From NCBI GenBank assembly GCA_051002895.1, contig JBPCLW010000047.1, positions 2,273-66,272 on the forward strand: a stretch of 64,000 bases of DNA, given 5' to 3'. Position numbers and translations under genes: made by a program. Each line of letters opens with the position of its first letter. Positions within the stretch are counted from its first letter, which is position 1. This document shows, piece after piece, positions 17,826 through 34,528 of the stretch. Under the pieces are notes generated by a model, which did no database searches, was not told where the DNA came from, and saw only the letters and a list, made by a program, of their open reading frames with translations. The stretch is from Candidatus Dormibacteria bacterium. GTDB lineage: Bacteria; Chloroflexota; Dormibacteria; Aeolococcales; Aeolococcaceae.

Positions 17826-18715
17826 CCACTGTCTCCCAGTTCCAGGCCACAGATTCGCTGGGCGGCCTCGCGGTAACGCTGGGTGGTGGCGGACGCGACA
17901 TCATCGGGCAACGCCGGCCCCGGCTCCTGCTTGTTCCAGTCCAGCGTCTCCAGGTAGTCGCGGACGGGCTGCTTGTCGAGCGACACCGCGGTCTCGCCCT
18001 CTCGCCATTGCCTCGCGTCCCAGAAGCGCGAGGAGTCCGGGGTGAAAATCTCATCGATGAGGGTGAGTTGACCATCGATGAGACCGAACTCGAACTTGGT
18101 GTCGGCGAGGAGTATCTCCCGCGCTGTGCAGTGCCGGCTGGCATGGTGGAAGAGTTGCAGCGATACCGCCTCCAGTTGAGTGGCGAGTTGGGAGCCGTAG
18201 AGATCGGCCAGCGCGGCACGGCTGATGTTGACGTCGTGACCGTCGTCGCTCTTTGTTGCCGGGGTGAAGCGGAACTCCGGCAGCCGCGACGACTCCCGGA
18301 GTCCGGGTGGCAGGGCCTCACCGGCGAGGGTACCCTTCTGCTGATACTCCTTCCATCCCGATCCGGCGAGGTAGCCGCGGACAACGCACTCGATGTCGAT
18401 GCGCTGGGCGCGCCGGCAACGCATCGAGCGCTCGCGCAGTTCCGCCCATGCTTGCGCAGGGATCACGTCATCGCGGTCGGGGAGAAGGTGGTTGGGGCAG
18501 ATCTCCTCGGTTTCTGCGAACCACCACCGGGAGATCTGGGTGAGCACGCGGCCCTTGTCGGGAATCGGTGTGGGCAGCACCACATCGAAGGCTGACAGCC
18601 GGTCGGTCGCCACCATGAGAAGTGCGCCGTCCTCGAGCACAAAAGTGTCGCGGACCTTGCCGCGGCGGAACAATTGGAGTCCCTCGAGGTTTGCCTGCAC
18701 CAGTGTCGTGGTCAT
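17822..18715 (-). CDS. purC: SAICAR synthetase
   Basis: LFRRGKVRDTF...ATDRLSAFD...ADTKFEFG motifs. Confidence 0.9.
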   Translation of the reverse strand: MTTTLVQANLEGLQLFRRGKVRDTFVLEDGALLMVATDRLSAFDVVLPTPIPDKGRVLTQISRWWFAETEEICPNHLLPDRDDVIPAQAWAELRERSMRCRRAQRIDIECVVRGYLAGSGWKEYQQKGTLAGEALPPGLRESSRLPEFRFTPATKSDDGHDVNISRAALADLYGSQLATQLEAVSLQLFHHASRHCTAREILLADTKFEFGLIDGQLTLIDEIFTPDSSRFWDARQWREGETAVSLDKQPVRDYLETLDWNKQEPGPALPDDVASATTQRYREAAQRICGLELGDSG

Positions 18716-20094
18716 GCCATGGTCCCTCCCCCGATACCCGCCTCCACCGCCAGGGTGGGACGATCGTCGGACTCTGTTGTGGCGGCAGCCGCGTGCAGCG
18801 GCAGACCGAGGCGCCGGTAGGTGTCATCGATGTTGTTGAGGTAGGGCGCGATATCGAAGCAGATGTCGAGATGATGGGCGCTCAGCACGGCGACGATGTC
18901 AGGGTCGGCGCGGACGAGCTCCTCGAAGCCCGCCTCACCGCTACGCGCCCGCTCCGCGTGGCGCTGCACCGCCCGGTAGGCATCCTCGCGACTCTGGCGA
19001 CCCTCGACGATCAGAGCGTCGAGCACTCGTGGTGAGCAGGTGATCTTGCCAAGATGCTCGATGTCCCGCCGCATCTTGGCGGTGTCGACGCGTAGCCCCG
19101 CGACCACGCGGGTGCTGAGCTGGAGCATGTAGTCGATGAGCGCACACGCGTCGGGGAGGACGACCCGCTCGGCGGACGAGTGGGAGATGTCGCGTTCGTG
19201 CCAGAGTGCCACCGACTCGAGGCCGACGACTGCATGGCCGCGGAGGATCCGCGCCATCCCGCAGACGCGCTCGCTGAGCACGGGATTGTGCTTGTGGGGC
19301 ATGGCCGAACTGCCCTTCTGGCGTTGGGCGAAGGGTTCCTCGAGCTCGGAGATCTCGGTCTGTTGGAGCAACCGAACCATGGTGGCTACACGCTCGAGGA
19401 CACCCCCAAGAATCGCGATGGCGCAGAGGAACGAGGCGTGACGGTCGCGGGCCAGCACCTGCGTCGCAGTTGCGGCAACCTCGAGTCCGAGGCCACGGCA
19501 GACGTGTTCCTCCACCGCACCGGGCACCGAGGTGTGCGTTCCCACCGGCCCGGTGATCTGTCCCACCGCCACCTCGGCGGCGGCGGCGGCGAGCCGGGTG
19601 CGGCTACGCCGCACCTCGTCGTAGTGGTTGGCGAATTTCACGCCCAGGCTCAGCGGCTCGGCATGGACACCGTGCGTGCGCCCCGGCATGAGGGTCTGGC
19701 GATGCTTGACCGCCAGGCGCTCCAGGGTGTCCTCGAGCGCCCTGGCATCCCCATCGATGAGCGCGGCGGCGTCGCGGAGTTGGGTGGCCAGTGCTGTGTC
19801 GACGATGTCCGACGACGTCAATCCGAGGTGGAGGTGACGCGCCTCCTCGCCGGCGGATTCCTGGATCTGCGAGACGAATGCGGCAACATCGTGCCCCTGC
19901 TCTGCCTCCAGTTCGGCGATCCGCTCGGCATCGAGGCGAATCCGGGCGCGCAGCGCCGGCGCGGCGGTGGTGGGGATCCGCCCGATCGCGCCCCAACCCT
20001 CGACGGCGAGAAGTTCGACCTCGAGCCAGCGCTGCAACCGCGACGCGTCGCTGAAGATCGCGGCTATCGCTGCCGGGGTGTAGCGCGAGATCAC
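18712..20094 (-). CDS. purB: adenylosuccinate lyase
   Basis: ISRYTP...SSAMPHKHNP fumarate-lyase signature. GTG start at 20094 (VISRYT); the ORF-track extension up to 21093 is antisense to the GDPD gene and is rejected. Confidence 0.85.
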   Translation of the reverse strand: MISRYTPAAIAAIFSDASRLQRWLEVELLAVEGWGAIGRIPTTAAPALRARIRLDAERIAELEAEQGHDVAAFVSQIQESAGEEARHLHLGLTSSDIVDTALATQLRDAAALIDGDARALEDTLERLAVKHRQTLMPGRTHGVHAEPLSLGVKFANHYDEVRRSRTRLAAAAAEVAVGQITGPVGTHTSVPGAVEEHVCRGLGLEVAATATQVLARDRHASFLCAIAILGGVLERVATMVRLLQQTEISELEEPFAQRQKGSSAMPHKHNPVLSERVCGMARILRGHAVVGLESVALWHERDISHSSAERVVLPDACALIDYMLQLSTRVVAGLRVDTAKMRRDIEHLGKITCSPRVLDALIVEGRQSREDAYRAVQRHAERARSGEAGFEELVRADPDIVAVLSAHHLDICFDIAPYLNNIDDTYRRLGLPLHAAAATTESDDRPTLAVEAGIGGGTMA

Positions 20095-20187
20095 GTCCTC
20101 GTATTCTAGCGATCGCCGCCTGGCGACCCGACCACAAGCCACCCACCGACCGGCTAGGCTCGCGTGGCGCGAGAGGGACTGCAGCCA

Positions 20188-20919
20188 ATGGCATTCATCA
20201 CCGCCCACCGGGGCGTCTACGACCGGGGATTCCGCCCGCAGGTGCGGGAGAACACGCCGGCATCCATCGAGCGGGCCATCGCCCACGGCGCCGACATGGT
20301 CGAGATCGACGTGCGGCGGACTCTCGACGGCGAGTTGGTACTCAGTCACGACGAGTACATCCACGGTGTCCCCATCGGCCGGCTGACCTACGCGGCACTT
20401 CATCACCGTGCCCGTCATCAGCGAGTTCCCTGGCCGCGTCTTGGCGATGTAGTCCAGCAGTGTGCGGGCCGCATCAAGCTCGATGTCGAGCTCAAAGAGC
20501 CGGGGATCGAGCGCGAGGTCGGCACCGTCCTGCTCGAGACGTTGGCGCCGTCGGAGTTGGTGACGTCGTTCCGGGACGACGTCATCGCCGCCATGAAGCG
20601 TGCCCATCCAGAGATTCGCGCTGGCCTTCTTCTGGGCAGTTCCCGCGCCACCGCGCGGGCTCAGTTCTCTGAACTCTTTCCATTTGGTCGCGTGGAGCGC
20701 TGCCGGGCCGACTTCATCGTTCCCCACGCGTCGATCGCGGATTTCCTGGTGCGTCGCGCTCACGATCGCGGCATCGGGGTCATGGTCTGGACCATGAGAC
20801 GGGAGAATCACCTCGCCCGTCTCATCCTCGATCCTCGGGTGGAGGCGGTGATCACCGACCGCGTCGCCGACGCGCGCAGACTGCGTGGCGACGGCGTGGG
20901 CGTCGCCATCGGCGCCTGA
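20188..20919 (+). CDS. glycerophosphodiester phosphodiesterase (GDPD) family protein
   Basis: FITAHRG...ENT...EIDVRRTLDGELVLSHD GDPD motifs; the ATG at 20188 is preceded by GAGAGGGA (ORF track: GTG at 20164). Confidence 0.7.
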   Translation: MAFITAHRGVYDRGFRPQVRENTPASIERAIAHGADMVEIDVRRTLDGELVLSHDEYIHGVPIGRLTYAALHHRARHQRVPWPRLGDVVQQCAGRIKLDVELKEPGIEREVGTVLLETLAPSELVTSFRDDVIAAMKRAHPEIRAGLLLGSSRATARAQFSELFPFGRVERCRADFIVPHASIADFLVRRAHDRGIGVMVWTMRRENHLARLILDPRVEAVITDRVADARRLRGDGVGVAIGA

Positions 20920-20938
20920 CCGGCGGGACGGCCTTCCT

Positions 20939-20976
20939 ATACTCCGGCGAGTGACCGATACTCCGGCGAGTGACCG
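20939..20976. repeat. 19-bp tandem direct repeat x2 (atactccggcgagtgaccg) plus a partial third unit, upstream of the ECF sigma gene
   Basis: Read directly in the GDPD-sigma intergenic region. Confidence 0.75.
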
Positions 20977-21106
20977 AGAGTGACGTTGATTCCCACCTGT
21001 CGCGTCAGTGTGGGCCCCGGTCACCGTCTTCCTGCCCCGTGGGCAACCCCGTAACCGTGCGTAGGAAGCGTCCGTTTCCCGACTACGAACCACACGAGCG
21101 CGTCAG

Positions 21107-23970: not shown

Positions 23971-23986
23971 CCGGTTCCGCTGACCA

Positions 23987-24658
23987 TTGCGTCTCCCTGG
24001 TGCGCCTCAGCGCACTCGTCTGCAGCAACTGATCGCGGTCTGGTTGCGCTGGAGTTTCCTGGCGGCGATGTGGTTGCGCCTGTGGGGGCGCGTTCGCATC
24101 AGTGGTCGCGAGTGCATGCCCCGTGAGGGCGGCGTTCTGGTGGTGTCGAATCATCTGGGTGCGGGTGATCCGGAGATCCTCTGGGCCATCTTTCCCCGGC
24201 AGCTGTGGTTCATGGCCCTCGACACATTGTTCGACCTTCCTGTCATCGGCTTCCTCATGCAATGTGCGGGGGCGTTCCCGGTGCATCGCGGCCGGGTGAA
24301 CCGCCGCGCCGTGCAGACCGCGCTATGGCTGCTGCGGGCAGGAGAGTCCGTAGCGATGTATCCGGAAGGAGAGCGGACCGTGCGCGCTGACCTCGAGCGG
24401 CCCCATGCGGGAGTGGGCTACCTCGCGCTGCTGGCGGGCGTACCGATTCTTCCCGTCGGTCTGGCCGGAAGTGAGCGGATCTTTCCCCGAGTCCGGCTAC
24501 CACCAAAGCAGCGCGGAATCGACGTGCACATTGGGCCGGCCTTCATGCTGCCGGAGGAGATTCAGGATCGGCATGTGGCCTCCGAGTACATCATGCAGCG
24601 GGTCGCCGATCTCTTGCCGACGCAGTATCGCGGGTACCTGCGTGACCACGAGCGGTGA
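23987..24658 (+). CDS. 1-acyl-sn-glycerol-3-phosphate acyltransferase (PlsC/LPLAT family)
   Basis: VVSNHLGAGDPEIL (HX4D-type variant block I) and YPEGERT (block III). Confidence 0.7.
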   Translation: MRLPGAPQRTRLQQLIAVWLRWSFLAAMWLRLWGRVRISGRECMPREGGVLVVSNHLGAGDPEILWAIFPRQLWFMALDTLFDLPVIGFLMQCAGAFPVHRGRVNRRAVQTALWLLRAGESVAMYPEGERTVRADLERPHAGVGYLALLAGVPILPVGLAGSERIFPRVRLPPKQRGIDVHIGPAFMLPEEIQDRHVASEYIMQRVADLLPTQYRGYLRDHER

Positions 24659-24721
24659 GGCCAGTCGTCGCCTCCCACCGTCACCGGGCGCAGGGCACTT
24701 CCGGTGTGCTTTGCTCAATAG

Positions 24722-26320
24722 GTGAGTGACACTGACAACCCCGACCCGGGGAATCCAGACACCCTGCGCGATCTCCTGGAAAGCGTCACTCGGCGGCACT
24801 CCGAGCGTCGTGCAATCACCCTACCCGAGGTCGGACTCCGCTACGCGGATGTCAATGAGCTGGCCAATCGCGGCGGCAATCTCCTTCTGGGATCTGGCTG
24901 TGGCGAGGGCGACATCGTTATGGCCCGGTGCCACAACAGCCTGACAATGCTGGCGACGTGGTTGGGCTGCGCCAAAATCGGGGCGGTGTTCATGCCAGTC
25001 AACAGTTTGCTGACAGGTGAGCCGCTGCACGGAGTGGTATCCCACGCAGGCGGCAAGATCATGATCTGCGATTCAGATCTCGCGCCGGAGGTTGTGGCGC
25101 TGCGCGGCCGGCTACCTGGGCTACGCGACCTCCTGGTGGCGGGACCGCCGCCGCCGGCCGGGGGTCGGAACTTCGATACGCTCCTGCGGGCAGCATCGAG
25201 TTCGGCCCCGCCGCCTCTACGGCACGGCTCTGACGCACCGGCGAAATTGATGTACACGAGTGGCACCACCGGTCGGCCCAAGGGCGCGATGTGGAGCCGT
25301 CACGCGGAGGCGCTGCACGTTGTGTGCTACGGGGACGAGTTGGTCCGCGTTGATCCCGGCGAAAACACCTATGCGTGTTTGCCGCTGTTCCACGCCACCT
25401 GTCAGGGCACGGCATTGGGAACACTCTGGCGTGGGGGCCACATCGCCATCGACCGCTCGTTCGATCCATTCCGCTTCTGGTCGCGGATCCGGGAGTCGGA
25501 CGCGGTGTTCTTTCCGTACGTCGGCACCATCCTCAGCGTGCTCGCCAAACGATCGGGTCGTCGTGAGGACGGCGATAACCCGGTGCGCCGGGTGATGGGC
25601 AGTGCAGCGCCGCAGGACCTTTGGCCCCTCATCGAGGAGCGCTTCGGTTTGGTCATCGAGGACGTGTGGGGACAGACCGAGCTGGCATCCTGCTGGACCC
25701 GCCCCGTGGGTGAGCGACAGCGCCCCGGTACCGTCGGCGCGCCGACCGACCGGTTTGTGGCCCGGATTGCCAACGTGGACGGTGGCGAGGCGCCGCGTGG
25801 CACACCCGGAGAGATGTGGATCCGGCCGCACCGCCGTAACGACGTTTTCGACCGCTACTACCACGACGACGAGGGGACTTCAGGGATGTGGACGGCGGAC
25901 GGTTGGTATCGCACCGGCGACCAGATGCTCCAGGATGACGAGGGAGACTTTGTGTTTCTCGGACGCATGCGCGACGCCATCCGGCGCCGCGGCGAGATGA
26001 TCACACCCGGTGACATCGAGCAGGCGGCACTGCTCCACCCACTGGTAATGGAGGCGGCGGCGGTGGCGGTCCCGGCTCCCCACGGCGTGGAGGATGAGGT
26101 CAAGCTCTGTGTGGTGGCGCGGGACGGTGCGGACCTGGACTGTCGAGCGTTGCGGGACTTCCTGCAGGAACGGCTGCCCGCCTTCATGGTCCCGCGATAC
26201 ATTCAGCCCTACAGCACCTTTCCCAAGACACTCACCACCCGCATCCAGAAATATCAACTGCGCGACGACGGTGTCGGGGGCGCCTGGGATGCGCGATCGG
26301 CAATCCTGCCGGCGCCGTGA
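24722..26320 (+). CDS. AMP-dependent synthetase/ligase (acyl-CoA synthetase family)
   Basis: LMYTSGTTGRPKGAM AMP-binding motif; Y(R)TGD; GTG start at 24722. Confidence 0.75.
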   Translation: MSDTDNPDPGNPDTLRDLLESVTRRHSERRAITLPEVGLRYADVNELANRGGNLLLGSGCGEGDIVMARCHNSLTMLATWLGCAKIGAVFMPVNSLLTGEPLHGVVSHAGGKIMICDSDLAPEVVALRGRLPGLRDLLVAGPPPPAGGRNFDTLLRAASSSAPPPLRHGSDAPAKLMYTSGTTGRPKGAMWSRHAEALHVVCYGDELVRVDPGENTYACLPLFHATCQGTALGTLWRGGHIAIDRSFDPFRFWSRIRESDAVFFPYVGTILSVLAKRSGRREDGDNPVRRVMGSAAPQDLWPLIEERFGLVIEDVWGQTELASCWTRPVGERQRPGTVGAPTDRFVARIANVDGGEAPRGTPGEMWIRPHRRNDVFDRYYHDDEGTSGMWTADGWYRTGDQMLQDDEGDFVFLGRMRDAIRRRGEMITPGDIEQAALLHPLVMEAAAVAVPAPHGVEDEVKLCVVARDGADLDCRALRDFLQERLPAFMVPRYIQPYSTFPKTLTTRIQKYQLRDDGVGGAWDARSAILPAP

Positions 26321-26670
26321 CCGACCCGACTGATGATCGGGAATCGCTCGCCCTGGCCGGCCTGACGACTCTTGTTCCCGGGACTGAATGGCCGAAGGCC
26401 ATGCCCGGGATCGTAGATCGCGCCCGGTGCGAAGGTGTGCACCGAGACCGCACCGGTGGGCAAGCCGGCGAACGCGTACGTGCCCGATGGTCCGGTGATA
26501 ACCGCTCGACGCGTCGCTCCCTCTCCGACGACCACCACCGCGTTGGCGAACGCGTGGCCGGACGAGTCCGTGATGCGTCCCGACACAGAGGCGCTATCGG
26601 CAGATGAGGTTGACCCGCAGGCCGCTAGGGCAACCGCGAGAAGCGCCAGGCACCACGGGCGGCACGACAC
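26254..26670 (-). CDS. lipoprotein with a carboxypeptidase-regulatory-like (CarbopepD_reg) beta-sandwich domain
   Basis: Lipobox LAACGS; GRITDSSGHAFANAVVVV...GTYAFAGLPTGAVSV; the 3' end overlaps the convergent ligase gene by ~67 nt. Confidence 0.45.
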   Translation of the reverse strand: MSCRPWCLALLAVALAACGSTSSADSASVSGRITDSSGHAFANAVVVVGEGATRRAVITGPSGTYAFAGLPTGAVSVHTFAPGAIYDPGHGLRPFSPGNKSRQAGQGERFPIISRVGHGAGRIADRASQAPPTPSSRS

Positions 26671-26734
26671 CTTGCCGGGAGAGCACGTCCTTGCCTCAGA
26701 CCTCGGCTGTGGGAATCGCTGCCCTGTCGTCTCC

Positions 26735-27547
26735 TCAGTCCTTGGCGCGATGGTTGAATCCGCGGAGGCCGAGGCTCCCGAAGACGGTGATGGCGACGAT
26801 CAGAGCGATCGGCGTCACCCACGTGGTCATGTGAGGAACGTCGGGGATCAGGGCGGAACGAATCCCCTCACTCATGTAGGTCATGGGATTCAGGAGGGTG
26901 ACCGCCTGGAACCAGGGCAGCTTGCTGAGCAGGGGCCAGGGGTACTGCGAGCAGCCCGTGAAGATCAGCGGCGTCAGCACCAGGGCGAACACGATGTTGA
27001 TCTTCCCCGCTGCCACAATGGTCCCCAGGGAGAGGCCCATGGCGCCGCCGGCAATGGATCCCAGCACCATAACAGCGAGGAGCAGCGGCAGATTCGCAGG
27101 CACGAACGGGACCATGCCAAGAACCAGAATCCCCACCGGAAACATGACAATTCCGGCGATGAGCGCGCGTCCCGCCGCGAACACGATTTTCTCCACCGCG
27201 ACCCAGGCCGTCGGCAGCGGTGCCATCAGCCGGTCCTCGATCTCGCGGGTGAAGGAGAACTCGATCACCATCGGCAGGGCAACGCTCTGCAGGGCGGTGA
27301 GCATGATGGTCATGGCGACGATGCCGGGAAAGAGTTGGGTGGCATAGCCATTGCGGGTAAAGCCGAGGTCACTGAGCACGCGACCGAAAACAAAGAGCAG
27401 CCCCAGCGGCTGGACCAATACCTGAGCGAGAAACACCGGGAACTGCCGGAGGGTGACGACGACGTCTCGGCGGAGGATGGCCACGAAGGCGCGCCCCGCA
27501 CCGCCCCTCTGGCTGACGTGCGCGTCGAGCACCGCCGCGTCTCTCAT
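26735..27547 (-). CDS. ABC-2 type transporter permease
   Basis: Six predicted TM helices and ABC-2 family topology; 4-nt overlap with the ATPase gene. Confidence 0.75.
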   Translation of the reverse strand: MRDAAVLDAHVSQRGGAGRAFVAILRRDVVVTLRQFPVFLAQVLVQPLGLLFVFGRVLSDLGFTRNGYATQLFPGIVAMTIMLTALQSVALPMVIEFSFTREIEDRLMAPLPTAWVAVEKIVFAAGRALIAGIVMFPVGILVLGMVPFVPANLPLLLAVMVLGSIAGGAMGLSLGTIVAAGKINIVFALVLTPLIFTGCSQYPWPLLSKLPWFQAVTLLNPMTYMSEGIRSALIPDVPHMTTWVTPIALIVAITVFGSLGLRGFNHRAKD

Positions 27548-28545
27548 CGCAGGGCCCGCCCGGTGAGTGCAATGAAGACGTCCTCGAGGCTTAGCTTGGC
27601 GAAGGAGAGGTCAGCGAGTTCAGCACCAGCCTCCACGACGGCGCGCGCGATCGGAGCCAGCAGGGTGGTTGCGTCGATGGTGGCGTGCACGCGATAGCGT
27701 CGCCGGCCGCTGTCCAGGGGCTTCTCATCCACCCGCTCGACCCGCTCGACTCCGCCGAGTCCCACCAGGGTGACCAGCAGTCCCTCCGCGTCAGCGTCAT
27801 GGAGTTCGACAACAACTCCCAGCGAGTTCCTCCCTGGCAACGTGGCGGTGAGCGCGGCGGGAGTGTCGAGCGCCAGCAGATGGCCGCGGTCCATGATTCC
27901 GACACGCTCGCAGAGGGTCGTGGCCTCCTCCATGTCGTGGGTGGTCAGTACGATGGTGACTCCGCGGCTGCGCAGGTCGCGGACGCGCTCCCAGACGAAC
28001 CGCCGAGCTTGGGGATCGAGGCCCGTGGTGGGTTCGTCGAGAAAGAGCACTTCGGGGCGGTGCATCAGAGCGCGCGCAATCATGATCCGCTGTGACTGGC
28101 CGCCGGAGAAAAAGTCAACCTTGTCGTCGGCCCGGTCGGTGAGGCCGAACTCCTCGAGTAGGGCGACGGCTCGGGTCCGGCGCTCAGCCGCCGGCATGCC
28201 GAAGTAGGCAGCGTGGAAGAGCAGGTTCTGACGCGCCGAGAGCGCGCGATCGAGATTGGATCGCTGAGGAACCACCGCCAGACGTCGCTTCGCCGCGACC
28301 GGATCGGCGACGACGTCGACACCGGAGATGAAGGCACGCCCTCCGGTTGGCCGCACCCGCGTGGTGAGAACGCCCATGGTCGTCGTCTTGCCGGCACCGT
28401 TGGGCCCGAGGAGTCCGAAGACCTCGCCGTGGCGGACACTGAAGCTCACCCCGTCGACCGCATTCACCGGCCGCTTGGGGTAGCGCTTCACCAGATCGAT
28501 CACTTCCACTGACGGCGGGAACGACTCCTCCAAGGGTTGGGCCAC
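27544..28545 (-). CDS. ABC transporter ATP-binding protein (DrrA-like) with a C-terminal extension
   Basis: Walker A GPNGAGKTT, signature FSGGQSQR, Walker B LFLDEPTTGLD, H-loop; GTG start. Confidence 0.85.
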   Translation of the reverse strand: MAQPLEESFPPSVEVIDLVKRYPKRPVNAVDGVSFSVRHGEVFGLLGPNGAGKTTTMGVLTTRVRPTGGRAFISGVDVVADPVAAKRRLAVVPQRSNLDRALSARQNLLFHAAYFGMPAAERRTRAVALLEEFGLTDRADDKVDFFSGGQSQRIMIARALMHRPEVLFLDEPTTGLDPQARRFVWERVRDLRSRGVTIVLTTHDMEEATTLCERVGIMDRGHLLALDTPAALTATLPGRNSLGVVVELHDADAEGLLVTLVGLGGVERVERVDEKPLDSGRRRYRVHATIDATTLLAPIARAVVEAGAELADLSFAKLSLEDVFIALTGRALR

Positions 28546-28556
28546 GATTCGCGAGT

Positions 28557-28760
28557 CTAGTGTCCTGCTTCAGAGGTTCGTGCCAGAGATCGTGGCAGGC
28601 AGCCGGAAGGCGGCCGGTCTGGGCGTTGAGGCCAAGGAAGGGGTGGATCGAGGAGGCGTGCATCTGAATGATGCATGACGACGAAGGGCCGGGACCCCTG
28701 ACGCCGGCATCGACGTCCAGAGCCGCGATACATCCATGAACCTCTGAAGCAGGACACTAG
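28557..28760. repeat. 23-bp perfect inverted repeat pair (ctagtgtcctgcttcagaggttc / gaacctctgaagcaggacactag) with a ~158-bp spacer
   Basis: Read directly. Fills the intergenic space between the ABC ATPase start and the stop of the MTase-like gene. A third copy of agcaggacactagg lies at 29458-29471. Confidence 0.8.
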
Positions 28761-29455
28761 GACACGGCAGCGGCACCACGGAGCAACACCGCCGTCACCG
28801 GGATGCGCAGGGTGTCGTCGGCGGCCAGGTGAGGACGCAGGGAGCGAGCGACTGACGCCTGCAGCGCGGCCACGGTGTCAGCGTCGAGACCTTGCAGGTC
28901 AGCGGCGAGCTCGCGTTGTACCACCATCGTGTTCCAGTAGTGCGCCGGTCCGTCGAAGCGGGCGACGTCACGAACCGACTCCGCGGTGAATTCATCCTCG
29001 CGGGCAGCGTCCAGCAGGTCCTCCGGCAGCAGTTGGTCGTAGAAGGGCGAGGGGACCCCATGCTCGCGCAGTGCGTCGAGGAGCGGAGCTTCCTGCGCTG
29101 GCGGATGCGAGGCGTCATAGACCAGCGCGGCGACAGCGCCAGGTCGTCGCGCCACCCGGCGCATCTCCGCGAGCAACGGCGGAGCGTTGCCGAATCCGAG
29201 TGTCAGCAATGAGAAAACGGCGTCCGCCGATGCATCGTCAAGCGGCAGCCGCTCGCGAACCGTTCCCGGTTCCACGATGATGAGGCGCCCTTGCGGTCCC
29301 AGACGCGTCTGCAGAGCGCGGGAAAGGACGCCATCAGCGAGGACGTCGACCACTGACGCGTCAGCGGCAACCGGTACGGCGGAGAGGAGGTGTTCAGTGA
29401 GCGCCTCACCGAGGGCCCGATCGTGGCCGAGGCCAAAGAGGATCGGCGATGTCAC
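28757..29455 (-). CDS. class-I methyltransferase-fold protein with a degenerate SAM motif I (hypothetical)
   Basis: Motif-like blocks VVDVLADG (motif I without GxGxG), RLIIVEP, DAVFSLLTL, RRPGAVAALVYD; GTG start. Confidence 0.45.
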   Translation of the reverse strand: MTSPILFGLGHDRALGEALTEHLLSAVPVAADASVVDVLADGVLSRALQTRLGPQGRLIIVEPGTVRERLPLDDASADAVFSLLTLGFGNAPPLLAEMRRVARRPGAVAALVYDASHPPAQEAPLLDALREHGVPSPFYDQLLPEDLLDAAREDEFTAESVRDVARFDGPAHYWNTMVVQRELAADLQGLDADTVAALQASVARSLRPHLAADDTLRIPVTAVLLRGAAAVS

Positions 29456-29465
29456 TAGCAGGACA

Positions 29466-30905
29466 CTAGGTCACTGCAACAGCTGCAGCGATGGCGGCGA
29501 CATGCGCGGGATCGCGCAGCAGCCGAAGGAACGGCTGCTGCCGCTCCTTCCATGAGTCGGCCGCCGCAATCAGCTCGGGGTGTTCCTCGATGAAGGCGGT
29601 GGTGTAGTGGCCGCTGCGGAAGGTTGCGTGCTCGAGGATGGCAAGGTGATAGGGGATGTTCGTGCGGATCCCGGTGATGCAGTACTCGATGAGCGCCCGC
29701 TGCATGCGGGTGATGGCGAGCTCACGTGTCGGCCCCCACACGATGAGCTTGGCGATCATCGGGTCGTAATTCGGCGACACCATCCCCGGACCGGCGAGAG
29801 AGGAGTCGACCCGCACCCCGGGCCCGCTGGGCTCGCGGTAGCCGGTGACCTGCCCTGGCGAGGGCATGAAGTTCTTCTGGTAGTTCTCGGCGTTGACGCG
29901 GCATTCGATGGCGTGACCCACGGGAACGAGGTCCTCCTGGCGCAGCGAGAGTGGCTCGCCGGCAGCGACGCGCAACTGCTCCACAACGAGGTCGACGCCG
30001 TAGACGCACTCGGTGACGGGATGCTCCACCTGGAGCCGGGTGTTCATCTCCAGGAAGAAGAACTCCCCGTTGGAGTAGATGAACTCAACAGTGCCCGCGT
30101 TGACGTAGCCGACAGCGCGCGCCGCGGTCACGGCCGCCTCTCCCATCTGCCGCCGTGTCTGAGGAGTGATGACCGAACTGGGCGACTCCTCGAGGATCTT
30201 CTGGTGCCGCCGCTGGATCGAGCACTCCCGCTCGCCAAGGTGCATGACATTGCCGTGAGAGTCAGCAATGACCTGGATCTCGATGTGCCGGGGCTCCTCG
30301 ACGTAACGCTCCAGGAAGACGGTGGCGTTGCCGAAGGCGCGCAGAGCGGTGGACTGCGCCGTCTCCAGACCGCTGCGCAGATCCGCCTCATCGCGGGCCA
30401 CCCGCATGCCGATACCGCCGCCACCAGCGCTCGCCTTGATCAGCACTGGATAGCCGATGTCCGCGGCGACGCCGACCGCCTCGTCGGGATTCTCGATGGC
30501 CCCGCTGCCGGGCACGATGGGCACGCCGGACGCGCGCATGCGCTCGCGGGCCGGCACCTTCTCGCCCATCGCCGCCATGGCCTCCGGGGGGGGGCCGATG
30601 AAGGTGATGCCGCGTTCCCCGCAGGCACGGGCAAACTCCTGATTCTCGCTGAGGAATCCATAGCCGGGATGGATTGCGTCTGCGTTGGTGAGCGTCGCCA
30701 CCTCGAGGATGCGCGCGATATTCAGGTATGACTGCGCCGGCGCCGCCGCGCCGATCTCATGAGCCTCGTCCGCGAGCAGGGTGAACGCCGCATTGCGGTC
30801 GGCCTCGCTGTACACGGCGACAGAGCGAAGCCCCAGGTCGCGACATGCGCGGATGACGCGGATGGCGATCTCTCCGCGGTTGGCCACGAGCACCGTGCTG
30901 AACAT
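29466..30905 (-). CDS. biotin carboxylase subunit (acetyl-CoA/pyruvate carboxylase subunit A type)
   Basis: 479 aa; ATP-grasp and biotin carboxylase motifs (NRGEIAIR, HPGYGFLSEN, GGGGIGMR, EMNTRLQVEHPVTE). Confidence 0.85.
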   Translation of the reverse strand: MFSTVLVANRGEIAIRVIRACRDLGLRSVAVYSEADRNAAFTLLADEAHEIGAAAPAQSYLNIARILEVATLTNADAIHPGYGFLSENQEFARACGERGITFIGPPPEAMAAMGEKVPARERMRASGVPIVPGSGAIENPDEAVGVAADIGYPVLIKASAGGGGIGMRVARDEADLRSGLETAQSTALRAFGNATVFLERYVEEPRHIEIQVIADSHGNVMHLGERECSIQRRHQKILEESPSSVITPQTRRQMGEAAVTAARAVGYVNAGTVEFIYSNGEFFFLEMNTRLQVEHPVTECVYGVDLVVEQLRVAAGEPLSLRQEDLVPVGHAIECRVNAENYQKNFMPSPGQVTGYREPSGPGVRVDSSLAGPGMVSPNYDPMIAKLIVWGPTRELAITRMQRALIEYCITGIRTNIPYHLAILEHATFRSGHYTTAFIEEHPELIAAADSWKERQQPFLRLLRDPAHVAAIAAAVAVT

Positions 30906-30939: not shown

Positions 30940-32721
30940 TCAGCTCACCGCGACGATGGGATCCTTGGGACCGACGATGTCACCCTCCTGGACGTACACG
31001 GCGGAGACCGTGCCGGCGCGCGTGGCGGTGACGTCGTTCTGCATCTTCATGGCCTCGAGCACGGCGACGAGGTCGCCGACACTAACGCTGTCTCCCTTCT
31101 TCACCGCCACCTTGAGAATGAGCCCCTGCATGGGCGCGGTGATGGCGCCCGCCGCGATGACCGGCGCCGACGACGCTCCGGCGCCCTCTCCGCTCTTGCC
31201 CCCACTCCTGCTGAGGCCCTGTCCAAACACGCGGACAGCGTACGTCTGGCCGTCGACCTCGACCCGGAGTTCGCGCACCTCCTCGGCGGGCGCGGGCTGC
31301 AGGTCCGGCGCGCTCTCCACAGTTGGGGGCGCATGCTCGGCAATCTCGGGGATCTCGGGACCGATTTCGTCGCCGAGCAGCTCGACCTCGGCGGCGCCGT
31401 GGAGCAGGGCGAGGGTCTCGTCGGGGAAAAGGGCGTGAAGCAGAGCCGCGCCCCCGTCGTCGCGCACGCCTTCGCGCTTCAGATCGCGCCGCGAGCGATC
31501 CATCTGAGGCTCGAGGAGATCGGCCGGACGGCAGGTGATGGGTTCCTCGCGGCCGTTGACGAGGCGGCGCACGTCGCCATCAATGGCCACGGGCGGCTGC
31601 CCGAACAGGCCCAGACAGTAGTCTTTCACCTCCTGGCTGACGGTGGCATAGCGGTCACCATCGGTGACGTTGTAGACGGCCTGGCTGGAGAGGATCTCCG
31701 GAAAGGGGCTGACCAGAGGCGGGTGACCGAGGTCGGCGCGCACTTGGGCGATCTCGCTCTCCACCTCAGGGAGACGGTCAAGGGCGTTGCGCTCGCGGAG
31801 TTCGGCGAGGCCGTGACCCATGAGCGAGACAGGGAGCTGGCCGCGGAGTGCCGCGGTGTCGAGACGCCACGCCCCGGGATCGGCAAGGTCGACGTACAGC
31901 GGGGCGATCGCCTCGAAGAACTCGCTGACCGCAAGGATGGCGTTGAGGTCGAGTTCGGGATCGGCGTCGGTGCCGCTGAGTCCGTTCACCACCGCCTCAG
32001 CTGCCGGGTAGGCAGCTCCGCCGCCCAGCGCGGCAACGCAGACGTCCGCACGGCTGACGACACCGGCGATGGCGCCCGCCTGGTAGGCGTAGCCGGCCTG
32101 ACCGGCCTGTGCGGTCAGGCTGAGGCCAACGGGAAGGCCACCACTTGCCTCCCCGATCTCCCGGGCCAGATCGACAGCACGACGGGCTGCGAGCGACCCC
32201 AGGGGGTCATGTAGGGTCAGGCGATCCGCCCCCATCGCTGCGAACCGCGCTGCCAGGTCGGTGAGCCGTCCCGCCGGGGTGTCGGTGTGGACGATGACCC
32301 CGTCGACCTGGCGGCCGGCGTCCTTCACCGCTGCAATCGAGCGCTCGAGGTTCGCGGCGTCGTTCAGCGGGTCGTGAAGGCGGAAGAGGTCGATCCCCGA
32401 CTCCACCGCGTGGCGGATGAAGGCATCGACAACATCGTCCGGGTACTGACGATGCCCGACCAGAGCCTGACCGGCGAGGCTTGCCGCCAGGGTCGTCCGG
32501 GGAGCCGCCTCGCGGATGGCGCGGAGCCGCTGGAAGGGATCCTCGCCAAGGAATCGCAGCTGCGACTCGAAGGAGGGACCGCCGAGGACCTCGAGGGCGG
32601 CGAACCCGCAGACGTCGAGCAGGGCAGCGGCGCGAACAGCATGACGCTGGCGCAGGCGGCTGAGCAGAAGCGCCTGCTGCCCGTGGCGGAGAGACGCCTC
32701 CACCAATTCCAGGCGGGGCAT
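30940..32721 (-). CDS. carboxyltransferase (5S) subunit with C-terminal biotinyl carrier domain (pyruvate carboxylase subunit B / oxaloacetate decarboxylase alpha-like)
   Basis: N-terminal TIM-barrel HMGL-like domain (LRHGQQALL); C-terminal biotinyl domain with the EAMKM biotinylation motif. ORF track extends to 32952; the likely start is MPRLELVEASLRHG at 32721. Confidence 0.8.
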   Translation of the reverse strand: MPRLELVEASLRHGQQALLLSRLRQRHAVRAAALLDVCGFAALEVLGGPSFESQLRFLGEDPFQRLRAIREAAPRTTLAASLAGQALVGHRQYPDDVVDAFIRHAVESGIDLFRLHDPLNDAANLERSIAAVKDAGRQVDGVIVHTDTPAGRLTDLAARFAAMGADRLTLHDPLGSLAARRAVDLAREIGEASGGLPVGLSLTAQAGQAGYAYQAGAIAGVVSRADVCVAALGGGAAYPAAEAVVNGLSGTDADPELDLNAILAVSEFFEAIAPLYVDLADPGAWRLDTAALRGQLPVSLMGHGLAELRERNALDRLPEVESEIAQVRADLGHPPLVSPFPEILSSQAVYNVTDGDRYATVSQEVKDYCLGLFGQPPVAIDGDVRRLVNGREEPITCRPADLLEPQMDRSRRDLKREGVRDDGGAALLHALFPDETLALLHGAAEVELLGDEIGPEIPEIAEHAPPTVESAPDLQPAPAEEVRELRVEVDGQTYAVRVFGQGLSRSGGKSGEGAGASSAPVIAAGAITAPMQGLILKVAVKKGDSVSVGDLVAVLEAMKMQNDVTATRAGTVSAVYVQEGDIVGPKDPIVAVS

Positions 32722-32959
32722 GACCGGAGATTGTATTGGCGACTGGGTGTCCGATGTCCGTCCTACCTGGCCACACTGGTCGCAGGATCTACTCAGGGCA
32801 GTAACGTGAGCGCCTCGACGTGCCGGGGACGAACGATCGAAAAGTGACGGCGGTCGAGAGTGGCAGCGGCGGCGCGCAGCGCCCGCTTGCCCCAGGTCGC
32901 CCTCCACCGCTACCAGGGCTGACGGCTCACCGCGCGCCTCGTCGCCGCACATGCGCCGC

Positions 32960-34528
32960 TCAGCCGGATGGCGAGGTGCGCCCGTCCTCCGCAGCGAGGA
33001 CTGCCCGCGCGGCGTTGTGGCCGGGGATGCCGCTCACGCCACCACCGCGCCGGGCGCCGGCTCCGCACAACCATAGGTTGGGATATGCTGTTTCCACACC
33101 CCAGGTCCCCACCTCATCCTCGGATTCGGCGTAGGGCCAGGCGAGATCCCGGTGGAAGATGTTGCCGCCGGGCAGACCGAGTTCCGCCTCCAGTTCGATC
33201 GGAGTGCGCGCTTCCAGACAGGGTGTCCCGTCGCCGGCGAGCCACAGGCAGTCTTCGATCGGTTCGGCGAGCACGGCGTTCAGAGAACGCATGGTTGCGG
33301 CGACCGCACTGGCCTTGGCGGCGGCATGGTCACCGCGGAACAGCCGCGCCGGCATGTGCAACCCGAAGAGCGTGAGGGTCTGCGCTGCGGCCCGGCGCAA
33401 ATCCGGTCCGAGGATGCTGGGGTCGCTCAGAGAGTGGCAGTAGGTTTCACACGGCGGCAGGGTGGGGATCCGACCGCCAGCCGCCTGCTGATAGGCCTGC
33501 TGCAGTTGGGCATAGCCCTCGTTGACGTGGAACGTACCGGCGAAAGCCTGGCTGGGCTCCACGCTGCGATCGCGGATGCGGGGTAGGCGCGTCAGCAGCA
33601 TGTTGATCTTCAGCTGAGACCCCTCTGGAGAGGGCTGCTCAGTCAGCCGGCCGAGAAGCTCATCGAGGACGGCTGGCGCCACGTTGGCGAGGACGTGGCC
33701 CGCTTCCACCACGGTTCCATCCGCACACGTCACTTCGGCGCGAGTTCCGTCGGTGGCGATCTTCTGTACCTCGGAATCGACGCAGAGCACGGCCCCGGCG
33801 CCCCGCGCGCGGTCGGCCAGGGCGCCGGTCAGCGCGCCCATGCCGCCAACAGGAATATCCCAGTCGCCGGTGCCGTTGCCGATGACGTGATAGAGAAAGC
33901 ACCGATTTTGCCGCAGCCCCGGATCATCGGCGGGCGCGAACGTTCCGATGGTGGCGTCGGTGAGCACCACGCCACGCACCAAGTCGTCGGCGAAGGTCTC
34001 CTCCAGAGTTGTAGCCAGAGGTGTCTCGAACAACCCGGACCAGGCGTCGTCGTCGTCGACGAGCCGGCGCATGTCGGCTCGTGAGCACAGCGGCTGGGTG
34101 AGGGTGGGAAAGACTCGCGCGGCGACCGCAGCGGTCATGGCGTGGAACCGCCGCCAGGTCTCATACGCTCCCGAGTCACCAGTGAGGTCAGACATCGACG
34201 CTCGACTGCGCTCCTCGTTGTCCTCGATAAGAAGTCCGCTCAGATCGCAAGGGGTGTAGGAGGAGACGCGTCGGCGCCGAATCTCCACGGTGATATCCAG
34301 TTCCCTGAGCAGGGCTTTGGGGAACAAGCTCACCAGGTAGGAGTATCGAGAGAGCCGCGCGTCGACGCCGGCAAATGGCAATTCGGACACCGCAGCGCCG
34401 CCCAGATGATGCCGACGTTCCAAGACCAGCACCGACCTGCCGGCCCGGCTCAGAAGGATGGCGGCAACCAGGCCGTTGTGTCCGCCACCGACGATTACGG
34501 CATCGTAGAAACCGACGCTGGCGGTCAT
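32960..34528 (-). CDS. NAD(P)/FAD-dependent oxidoreductase, phytoene-desaturase (CrtI)-related family
   Basis: N-terminal YDAVIVGGGHNGLVAAILLSRAG...LERR dinucleotide-binding motif; 522 aa. Confidence 0.7.
   Translation of the reverse strand: MTASVGFYDAVIVGGGHNGLVAAILLSRAGRSVLVLERRHHLGGAAVSELPFAGVDARLSRYSYLVSLFPKALLRELDITVEIRRRRVSSYTPCDLSGLLIEDNEERSRASMSDLTGDSGAYETWRRFHAMTAAVAARVFPTLTQPLCSRADMRRLVDDDDAWSGLFETPLATTLEETFADDLVRGVVLTDATIGTFAPADDPGLRQNRCFLYHVIGNGTGDWDIPVGGMGALTGALADRARGAGAVLCVDSEVQKIATDGTRAEVTCADGTVVEAGHVLANVAPAVLDELLGRLTEQPSPEGSQLKINMLLTRLPRIRDRSVEPSQAFAGTFHVNEGYAQLQQAYQQAAGGRIPTLPPCETYCHSLSDPSILGPDLRRAAAQTLTLFGLHMPARLFRGDHAAAKASAVAATMRSLNAVLAEPIEDCLWLAGDGTPCLEARTPIELEAELGLPGGNIFHRDLAWPYAESEDEVGTWGVETAYPNLWLCGAGARRGGGVSGIPGHNAARAVLAAEDGRTSPSG

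Follow-up and report, generated by a model that had tools for sequence, protein, structure and literature searches.

A probable 204-bp miniature inverted-repeat element with IS481-like ends at a CTAG stop codon in a Candidatus Dormibacteria carboxylase operon

Transposable elements of the miniature inverted-repeat type (MITEs) are common in bacteria and are well understood in outline. The Correia elements of Neisseria, together with ERIC, RUP and Nezha, are non-coding, measure about 100–300 bp, carry terminal inverted repeats (TIRs) that are perfect or nearly so, and have a short palindromic target. Correia elements and other MITEs often separate genes that belong to a single transcription unit, and their repeats, once transcribed, fold into a long stem. 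Here we describe a unit with a similar organization that spans positions 28557–28760 of a 64,000-nucleotide stretch of DNA (the window) from an uncultured soil bacterium of the Candidatus Dormibacteria (assembly GCA_051002895.1, contig JBPCLW010000047.1, positions 2,273–66,272 of the forward strand), and we conclude that this unit is probably one copy of a 204-bp non-coding MITE. The overall architecture is similar to that of Correia, ERIC, RUP and Nezha, but there is no sequence similarity to any of them, the host phylum (Candidatus Dormibacterota) differs, and the element family is uncatalogued. The ends resemble those of the IS481 family, members of which use NCTAGN as target and have inverted repeats that start with TGT, as described for ISRe46/TnRErm46 of Rhodococcus equi (PMC6794481) and ISLxc2 of Leifsonia xyli (PMC2516522). 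In this family, a neighbouring gene can take its stop codon from the TAG of the target duplication, as reported for parB beside TnRErm46 (PMC6794481).

The unit comprises the sequence CTAGTGTCCTGCTTCAGAGGTTC at 28557–28579, its exact reverse complement at 28738–28760 and a 158-bp interior (28580–28737), an arrangement that was noted in the original prediction and is confirmed here by reading of the sequence and by pattern searches. The inverted repeat is perfect over 23 of 23 bp, and the arms were extended by a repeat finder to 26 nt, of which 25 match (96%); none of 100 dinucleotide shuffles gave two matches to the 23-mer. The overall layout is CTAG, terminal repeats beginning TGT and finishing ACA (perfect over 19–23 bp) on either side of the non-coding interior, and CTAG. 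The CTAG that abuts both ends of the unit is rare, being found only 22 times in the window, with four of the 22 located within copies of the repeat motif. Since CTAG is palindromic, it may represent a target duplication, a part of the repeat itself or the surroundings of a TA duplication. The tetranucleotide is strongly under-represented in the window, as seen from the 443 occurrences of GATC, and was encountered 337 times in 1.5 Mb of DNA comprising the window and all loci fetched for comparison (mostly Dormibacterota).

All genes around the repeats are encoded on the minus strand. The arm at 28738–28760 (minus strand) reads CTAGTGTCCTGCTTCAGAGGTTC on the mRNA strand and overlaps the end of a methyltransferase-like (MTase-like) gene (28757–29455, minus strand), where the CTAG of the arm supplies the TAG stop codon (28757–28759). 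The second arm, at 28557–28579 (minus strand), is situated 11 nt upstream of the GTG start (28545) of a gene for the ATPase of an ATP-binding cassette (ABC) transporter of the ABC-2 type (27544–28545, minus strand), a start codon that is supported by the N-termini of homologues. We suggest that the element inserted at a CTAG in which the C closes the final sense codon of the MTase-like gene and the TAG is its stop, such that the stop codon would have been preserved, and that the flanking CTAG represents the target or its duplication. Before insertion, the MTase-like stop and the GTG of the ABC ATPase gene would have been separated by 11 nt, and the element would have added 200 bp (196 bp of element plus the duplicated CTAG), thereby parting the MTase-like gene from the ABC genes. 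We note that the minus strand of 28753–28769 reads GTGTCCTAGTGTCCTGC, in which the closing codons of the MTase-like gene (GTG TCC TAG) come close to duplicating the start of the element, GTGTCCTG. This near-tandem GTGTCCT-A-GTGTCCT could reflect insertion beside an end-like sequence or could have arisen by chance.

The main evidence is indirect, in that the presence of further copies is indicated by the points at which independent assemblies of the same organism break. At 100% identity, this organism is found in one Joint Genome Institute (JGI) metagenome and in three Logan (k=31) run assemblies. The JGI contig reads through the element, whereas each of the five Logan contigs is interrupted there: on the MTase side, two of them (SRR33880236 and SRR33880237) have their end at window position 28731, and on the ABC side, the other three (SRR33880236, SRR33880237 and SRR24198228) begin at 28586. 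The terminal 31-mer of every Logan contig holds exactly one base outside 28557–28760. The window itself contains no branching 31-mers, and thus the breaks require extra sequence in those samples. In de Bruijn simulations of unitig boundaries, a second copy of 28557–28760 placed in another context, with its CTAGs included, gives an MTase-side end at 28731 and an ABC-side start at 28586, exactly as observed. A second copy lacking the CTAGs gives 28727 and 28590, an inverted allele 28738 and 28579, and an empty-site allele 28757 and 28560, such that among the simulated scenarios only the CTAG-inclusive second copy in other context reproduces the observed breaks. The break points therefore imply that at least 30 nt of each end, namely the arm and 7 nt of its own interior, recur beside different flanks, and the recurring sequence begins exactly at CTAG, as a multi-copy mobile element predicts.

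An insertion polymorphism with empty and filled alleles was rejected as a source of the breaks because the predicted break points are wrong, and fold-back library artefacts were rejected because the extra branch that they produce would be identical to that of an inversion. The inversion itself would be expected if the arms were recombinase sites of an invertible DNA switch, with the 158-bp segment carrying a promoter for the ABC genes. The architecture is indeed typical of such switches, with arms of 20–30 bp enclosing a segment of about 150–300 bp directly upstream of an operon start. Nevertheless, the breaks predicted for the inverted allele are displaced by several nucleotides from those observed, the element has one orientation in all five independent assemblies, and there is no recombinase gene among the window open reading frames (ORFs) that were scanned. 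In addition, no sigma-70-like promoter was detected in the segment, with a scan that may not suit this phylum. We consider such a switch very unlikely.

To place the ends of the element, TnRErm46 and 12 annotated IS481-family elements from plasmids were used as reference. The reference ends share the pattern [N CTAG N] TGT N11 A(G/C)GTTG(T/G)T, with the box at positions 15–20, and the targets contain CTAG in 11 of 12 cases and CTAA in the remaining one. When one gap is allowed, the IS481 profile scores the two arms in the window at 13.2 and 16.4 bits, which ranks them first and third of the 1033 TGT-starting sites in the window. The shared features encompass the CTAG at both ends, the TGT...ACA repeats and the use of TAG as the stop codon of the neighbouring gene. 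An AGGTT box is also present approximately 15 nt from the tip, but is shifted by one position and ends in C. In contrast to IS481-family elements, the unit in the window is only 204 bp long and has no transposase gene. Because the ends resemble those of the IS481 family, the element would most likely have been mobilized in trans by an IS481-family transposase encoded elsewhere in the genome. An IS630-type origin, with a TA duplication within the CTAG, may also be envisaged.

ORFs within the interior of the element show no bias in GC content at the third codon position (GC3), i.e. the interior is non-coding, and no Pfam match to it was found. Likewise, no relevant Rfam match was obtained at E ≤ 1 in the repeat region and none at gathering score in the window, and a tRNA search found none. 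The original prediction had raised the possibility of a long-stem RNA structure acting in processing or attenuation, and the stem would indeed form if the region were transcribed. A folding energy of −113.9 kcal/mol (z = −6.7) was obtained for the 236-nt transcript region, but the interior alone gives z = −0.79, on par with shuffled sequence, and it is the terminal arms alone that account for the strong fold of the whole region. With an interior no more structured than expected by chance, the stem is thus a by-product of the terminal repeats and not a dedicated RNA element. A locally evolved RNA hairpin, serving as a processing site, stabilizer or attenuator and unique to this locus, could in principle have originated when sequence flanking the MTase-like gene on its 3′ side was duplicated in inverted orientation. 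Such an origin would account for the fold, for the position exactly between two co-directional genes and only 11 nt from the downstream start, and for the fact that no other copy was found in any searched collection. By contrast, neither the interior nor the Rfam result is suggestive of a functional RNA, there is no U-tract after the stem, and the CTAG/TGT ends match a known transposon signature. Moreover, a single-copy element cannot explain breaks in three assemblies that need ends of at least 30 nt elsewhere, and we regard a locally evolved hairpin as unlikely. Rather, the size, the TIRs and the non-coding, unstructured interior are the anatomy of a MITE.

Should the element be co-transcribed with the operon, its two ends would form a perfect 23-bp RNA stem. 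In the case of Correia elements, the stem of the transcribed repeat is cut by RNase III (PMC10969869, PMC2649163). By analogy, it is plausible that the stem in the window is a substrate of RNase III, which could uncouple expression of the transporter from that of the carboxylase, but the element may equally be a neutral passenger. Processing of the stem would mark the point where the recently juxtaposed ABC transporter couples to, or uncouples from, the carboxylase operon.

A third exact copy of the 13-mer AGCAGGACACTAG is present at 29457–29469, at the junction between the biotin carboxylase gene (29466–30905, minus strand) and the MTase-like gene. The original prediction had recognized this copy but placed it at 29458–29471, off by one; the lengths given for the 10-nt junction here and for the 11-nt junction upstream of the ABC ATPase gene were correct. 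The three exact copies of AGCAGGACACTAG lie within 913 bp, each at a gene junction, and the copy at 29457–29469 forms with that at 28748–28774 a direct repeat extending to 27 nt at 85% identity. On the mRNA strand, the junction reads ACC-TAG-TGTCCTG-CTA-GTG, such that 29455–29469 (minus strand) corresponds to CTAG-TGTCCTG-CTAG. The biotin carboxylase gene has its TAG stop (29466–29468) in the first CTAG, so that this stop, like that of the MTase-like gene, lies within the motif CTAG; the second CTAG shares bases with the GTG start of the MTase-like gene. The interior of the element has two further exact 13-nt matches to unrelated positions in the window, and thus identity over 13 nt is by itself weak evidence. 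What distinguishes the third copy is not its length alone but that it coincides with the tip of the element, includes the rare CTAG and has the same stop-codon register 700 bp away.

Most simply, the 15-bp CTAG-TGTCCTG-CTAG would be the remnant of a second insertion, which we infer to have entered the biotin carboxylase gene at its CTAG stop and to have been later deleted nearly precisely between short repeats. The remnant would then retain 7 nt of the repeat tip and the duplicated CTAG, amounting to the 11 bp TGTCCTGCTAG, and removal of these 11 bp would give TAGTG, in which the stop overlaps the start. Inverted-repeat transposons such as Tn10 are known to leave remnants upon nearly precise excision. 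The 15-bp site is comparable in that it keeps both putative copies of the duplication and a few bases of one TIR, which is what a deletion between short repeats within a hairpin-forming element would leave, but differs in that no filled or empty allele was seen at the junction of the biotin carboxylase and MTase-like genes. Sequences upstream of the two CTAGs are also similar, with 10 of 14 nt identical and with the encoded C-termini AAAVS and AVAVT, each directly followed by the stop, which may be due to a preferred target, to duplication of the local sequence or, in codons rich in Ala/Val, to chance. The C-terminus of the biotin carboxylase (AAIAAAVAVT, then stop) is ancestral, as judged from its conservation in relatives. 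TAG is the stop of many biotin carboxylase genes in the phylum, and stop codons may be a main source of CTAG targets. A more far-reaching scenario would be an active MITE family of Dormibacterota whose transposase selects CTAG stops, with copies at the ends of operon genes, a stem that operates as a point of processing or insulation, and the neighbouring CTAG-TGTCCTG-CTAG as an excision footprint. We consider this scenario improbable; if true, the footprint would mean that an element with IS481-like ends is lost by cut-and-paste. The IS481 family is thought to move by copy-and-paste.

Several observations weigh against the interpretation of the unit as a multi-copy mobile element with ends of IS481 type. 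No second copy was read directly, and the inference of multiple copies rests on the behaviour of the assembly graph, not on reads. The 64-kb window has no other copy of the element, and the ORFs that were scanned include neither a transposase nor a recombinase. The exact 20-mer CCTCTGAAGCAGGACACTAG was found 0 times in 185,579 species-representative (GTDB) genomes, the 19-mer TGTCCTGCTTCAGAGGTTC is absent from IMG/VR, and a blastn comparison of the element with plasmids gave no match. A six-frame protein search, which was aimed at copies translated by gene callers and used the concatenated translation of the element, retrieved nothing at E ≤ 1 from 5.8 billion proteins. The 13-mer motif, with up to one mismatch, is absent from the orthologous operons of 80 related loci (1.4 Mb), which were obtained with the carboxyltransferase of the operon as query from species-representative genomes, mostly labelled as Candidatus Dormibacterota metagenome-assembled genomes. 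With respect to the ends, the profile scores of the arms are below the 18.6–30.6 bits of family members, TGT follows CTAG with no intervening base, and the GGTT box, which terminates in C instead of G, is shifted by one position towards the tip. Furthermore, on the mRNA strand the flanks (C-CTAG-T and A-CTAG-A) have only the 4-bp core in common and do not form a 6-bp NCTAGN duplication, in contrast to the matching 6-mers of the reference elements. Membership of the ends in the IS481 family, as assessed from the comparison of sequences, is consequently evenly poised. As for the putative remnant, the 10-nt spacer between the biotin carboxylase and MTase-like genes falls within the range of 3–12 nt seen in relatives, and an insertion is therefore not demanded.

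None of the searchable DNA collections holds the source genome itself, and sampling of the lineage is poor, as illustrated by the MTase-like protein, which has only four word-sharing relatives among the 5.8 billion proteins. An empty site was not found among relatives, where the nearest carriers of the MTase-like gene are 30–48% identical and none has the ABC genes downstream. The 19-mer TGTCCTGCTTCAGAGGTTC has two matches in JGI metagenome contigs, both located within unrelated coding sequence; these are chance matches, neither of which has CTAG or a partner arm. When the 1.5 Mb comprising the window and the fetched loci were searched for inverted repeats flanked by CTAG or initiated by TGT, only the present element was recovered.

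The three exact copies of AGCAGGACACTAG at gene junctions within such a short distance had also led to the suggestion of a shared operator, whereby a transcription factor would control the carboxylase and transporter genes. This suggestion found no support. Two of the copies are no more than tips belonging to a much longer perfect repeat, the related loci described above lack the motif, no regulator gene is adjacent, and the sites are located at stop/start junctions inside the operon rather than at a promoter. Operators would also leave unexplained the ends of at least 30 nt that recur in the assembly breaks, and this reading therefore appears highly improbable, in line with the invertible switch.

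A further proposal was that the direct motif copies at 28748–28760 and 29457–29469 are the termini of an insertion that carried the MTase-like gene. Of the MITE-like origin envisaged in the original prediction, the MITE is supported here, but the unit is the 204-bp segment 28557–28760 and not the segment between the direct motif copies. The MTase-like gene is bracketed by the 27-nt direct repeat, as such cargo would be, but has native coding composition. The proposal is refuted by synteny: the order carboxyltransferase, biotin carboxylase, MTase-like gene is kept in about 40 of the 80 Dormibacterota loci, and the adjacency predates the motif. We consider mobile cargo extremely improbable. Rather, the synteny of this triad, together with the coding-type composition, indicates that the MTase-like gene is an old member of the operon, which makes it a conserved partner of the two-subunit biotin carboxylase in Dormibacterota.

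In the window, the triad is preceded in transcription order by a flavin oxidoreductase gene (32960–34528, minus strand) and begins with the gene for the carboxyltransferase/biotin-carrier subunit (30940–32952, minus strand), which contains HMGL-like, PYC_OADA and Biotin_lipoyl domains. The best-segment identity of the 80 carboxyltransferase loci ranges from 41 to 63%, with the closer matches at 52–63%. Where the start codon can be placed, the MTase-like gene typically begins 3–9 nt after the biotin carboxylase stop. The MTase-like protein (232 aa) has a weak, partial match to Methyltransf_11 and a gene with a coding-type GC profile. The boxes RDVVRFDG and AADGTLRIPV are conserved in the family, whereas the glycine-rich motif is variant, reading CDLMCDGGTLG in relatives and VVDVLADGVL in the window. 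These features suggest that the MTase-like protein is a dedicated, possibly non-catalytic, partner of the carboxylase.

Downstream of the triad, the window departs from its relatives. In the latter, the MTase-like gene is followed by a convergent gene encoding a Big_5 domain and by a gene for an extracytoplasmic function (ECF) sigma factor, whereas in the window a block of approximately 4.6 kb (23971–28556) lies in between and includes an acyltransferase, an AMP-binding enzyme, the ABC-2 permease (26735–27547, minus strand) and the ABC ATPase. The ABC pair forms a free-standing two-gene operon elsewhere in relatives, and the named homologues of the ATPase are mostly from Dormibacterota, with a few labelled Actinomycetota. 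The repeat element is thus situated at the MTase-side edge of this lineage-specific block, where it lies immediately upstream of the ATPase gene. No concept is changed by these findings, and their value is local, in that an odd repeat pattern can be read as one probable insertion and one likely remnant. They also point to a mobile-element family in a phylum that is known almost only from metagenomes, where such repeats break short-read assemblies.

Beyond the operon, the window also holds genes for purine biosynthesis and other housekeeping functions. An adenylosuccinate-lyase-like ORF of 793 aa (18712–21093, minus strand) has Lyase_1 and ADSL_C domains only at residues 343–761. Antisense to its N-terminal extension, we note a 251-aa ORF with good GC3 (20164–20919, plus strand), and the sequence of a relative matches the plus strand at 19687–20106, which likewise overlaps the extension. 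The long N-terminus of the lyase-like ORF may be an over-call. A second antisense ORF, of 420 aa (26435–27697, plus strand), lies opposite the ABC permease and ATPase genes and has weaker GC3 (0.69); it probably represents a spurious shadow ORF, as is common in high-GC DNA.

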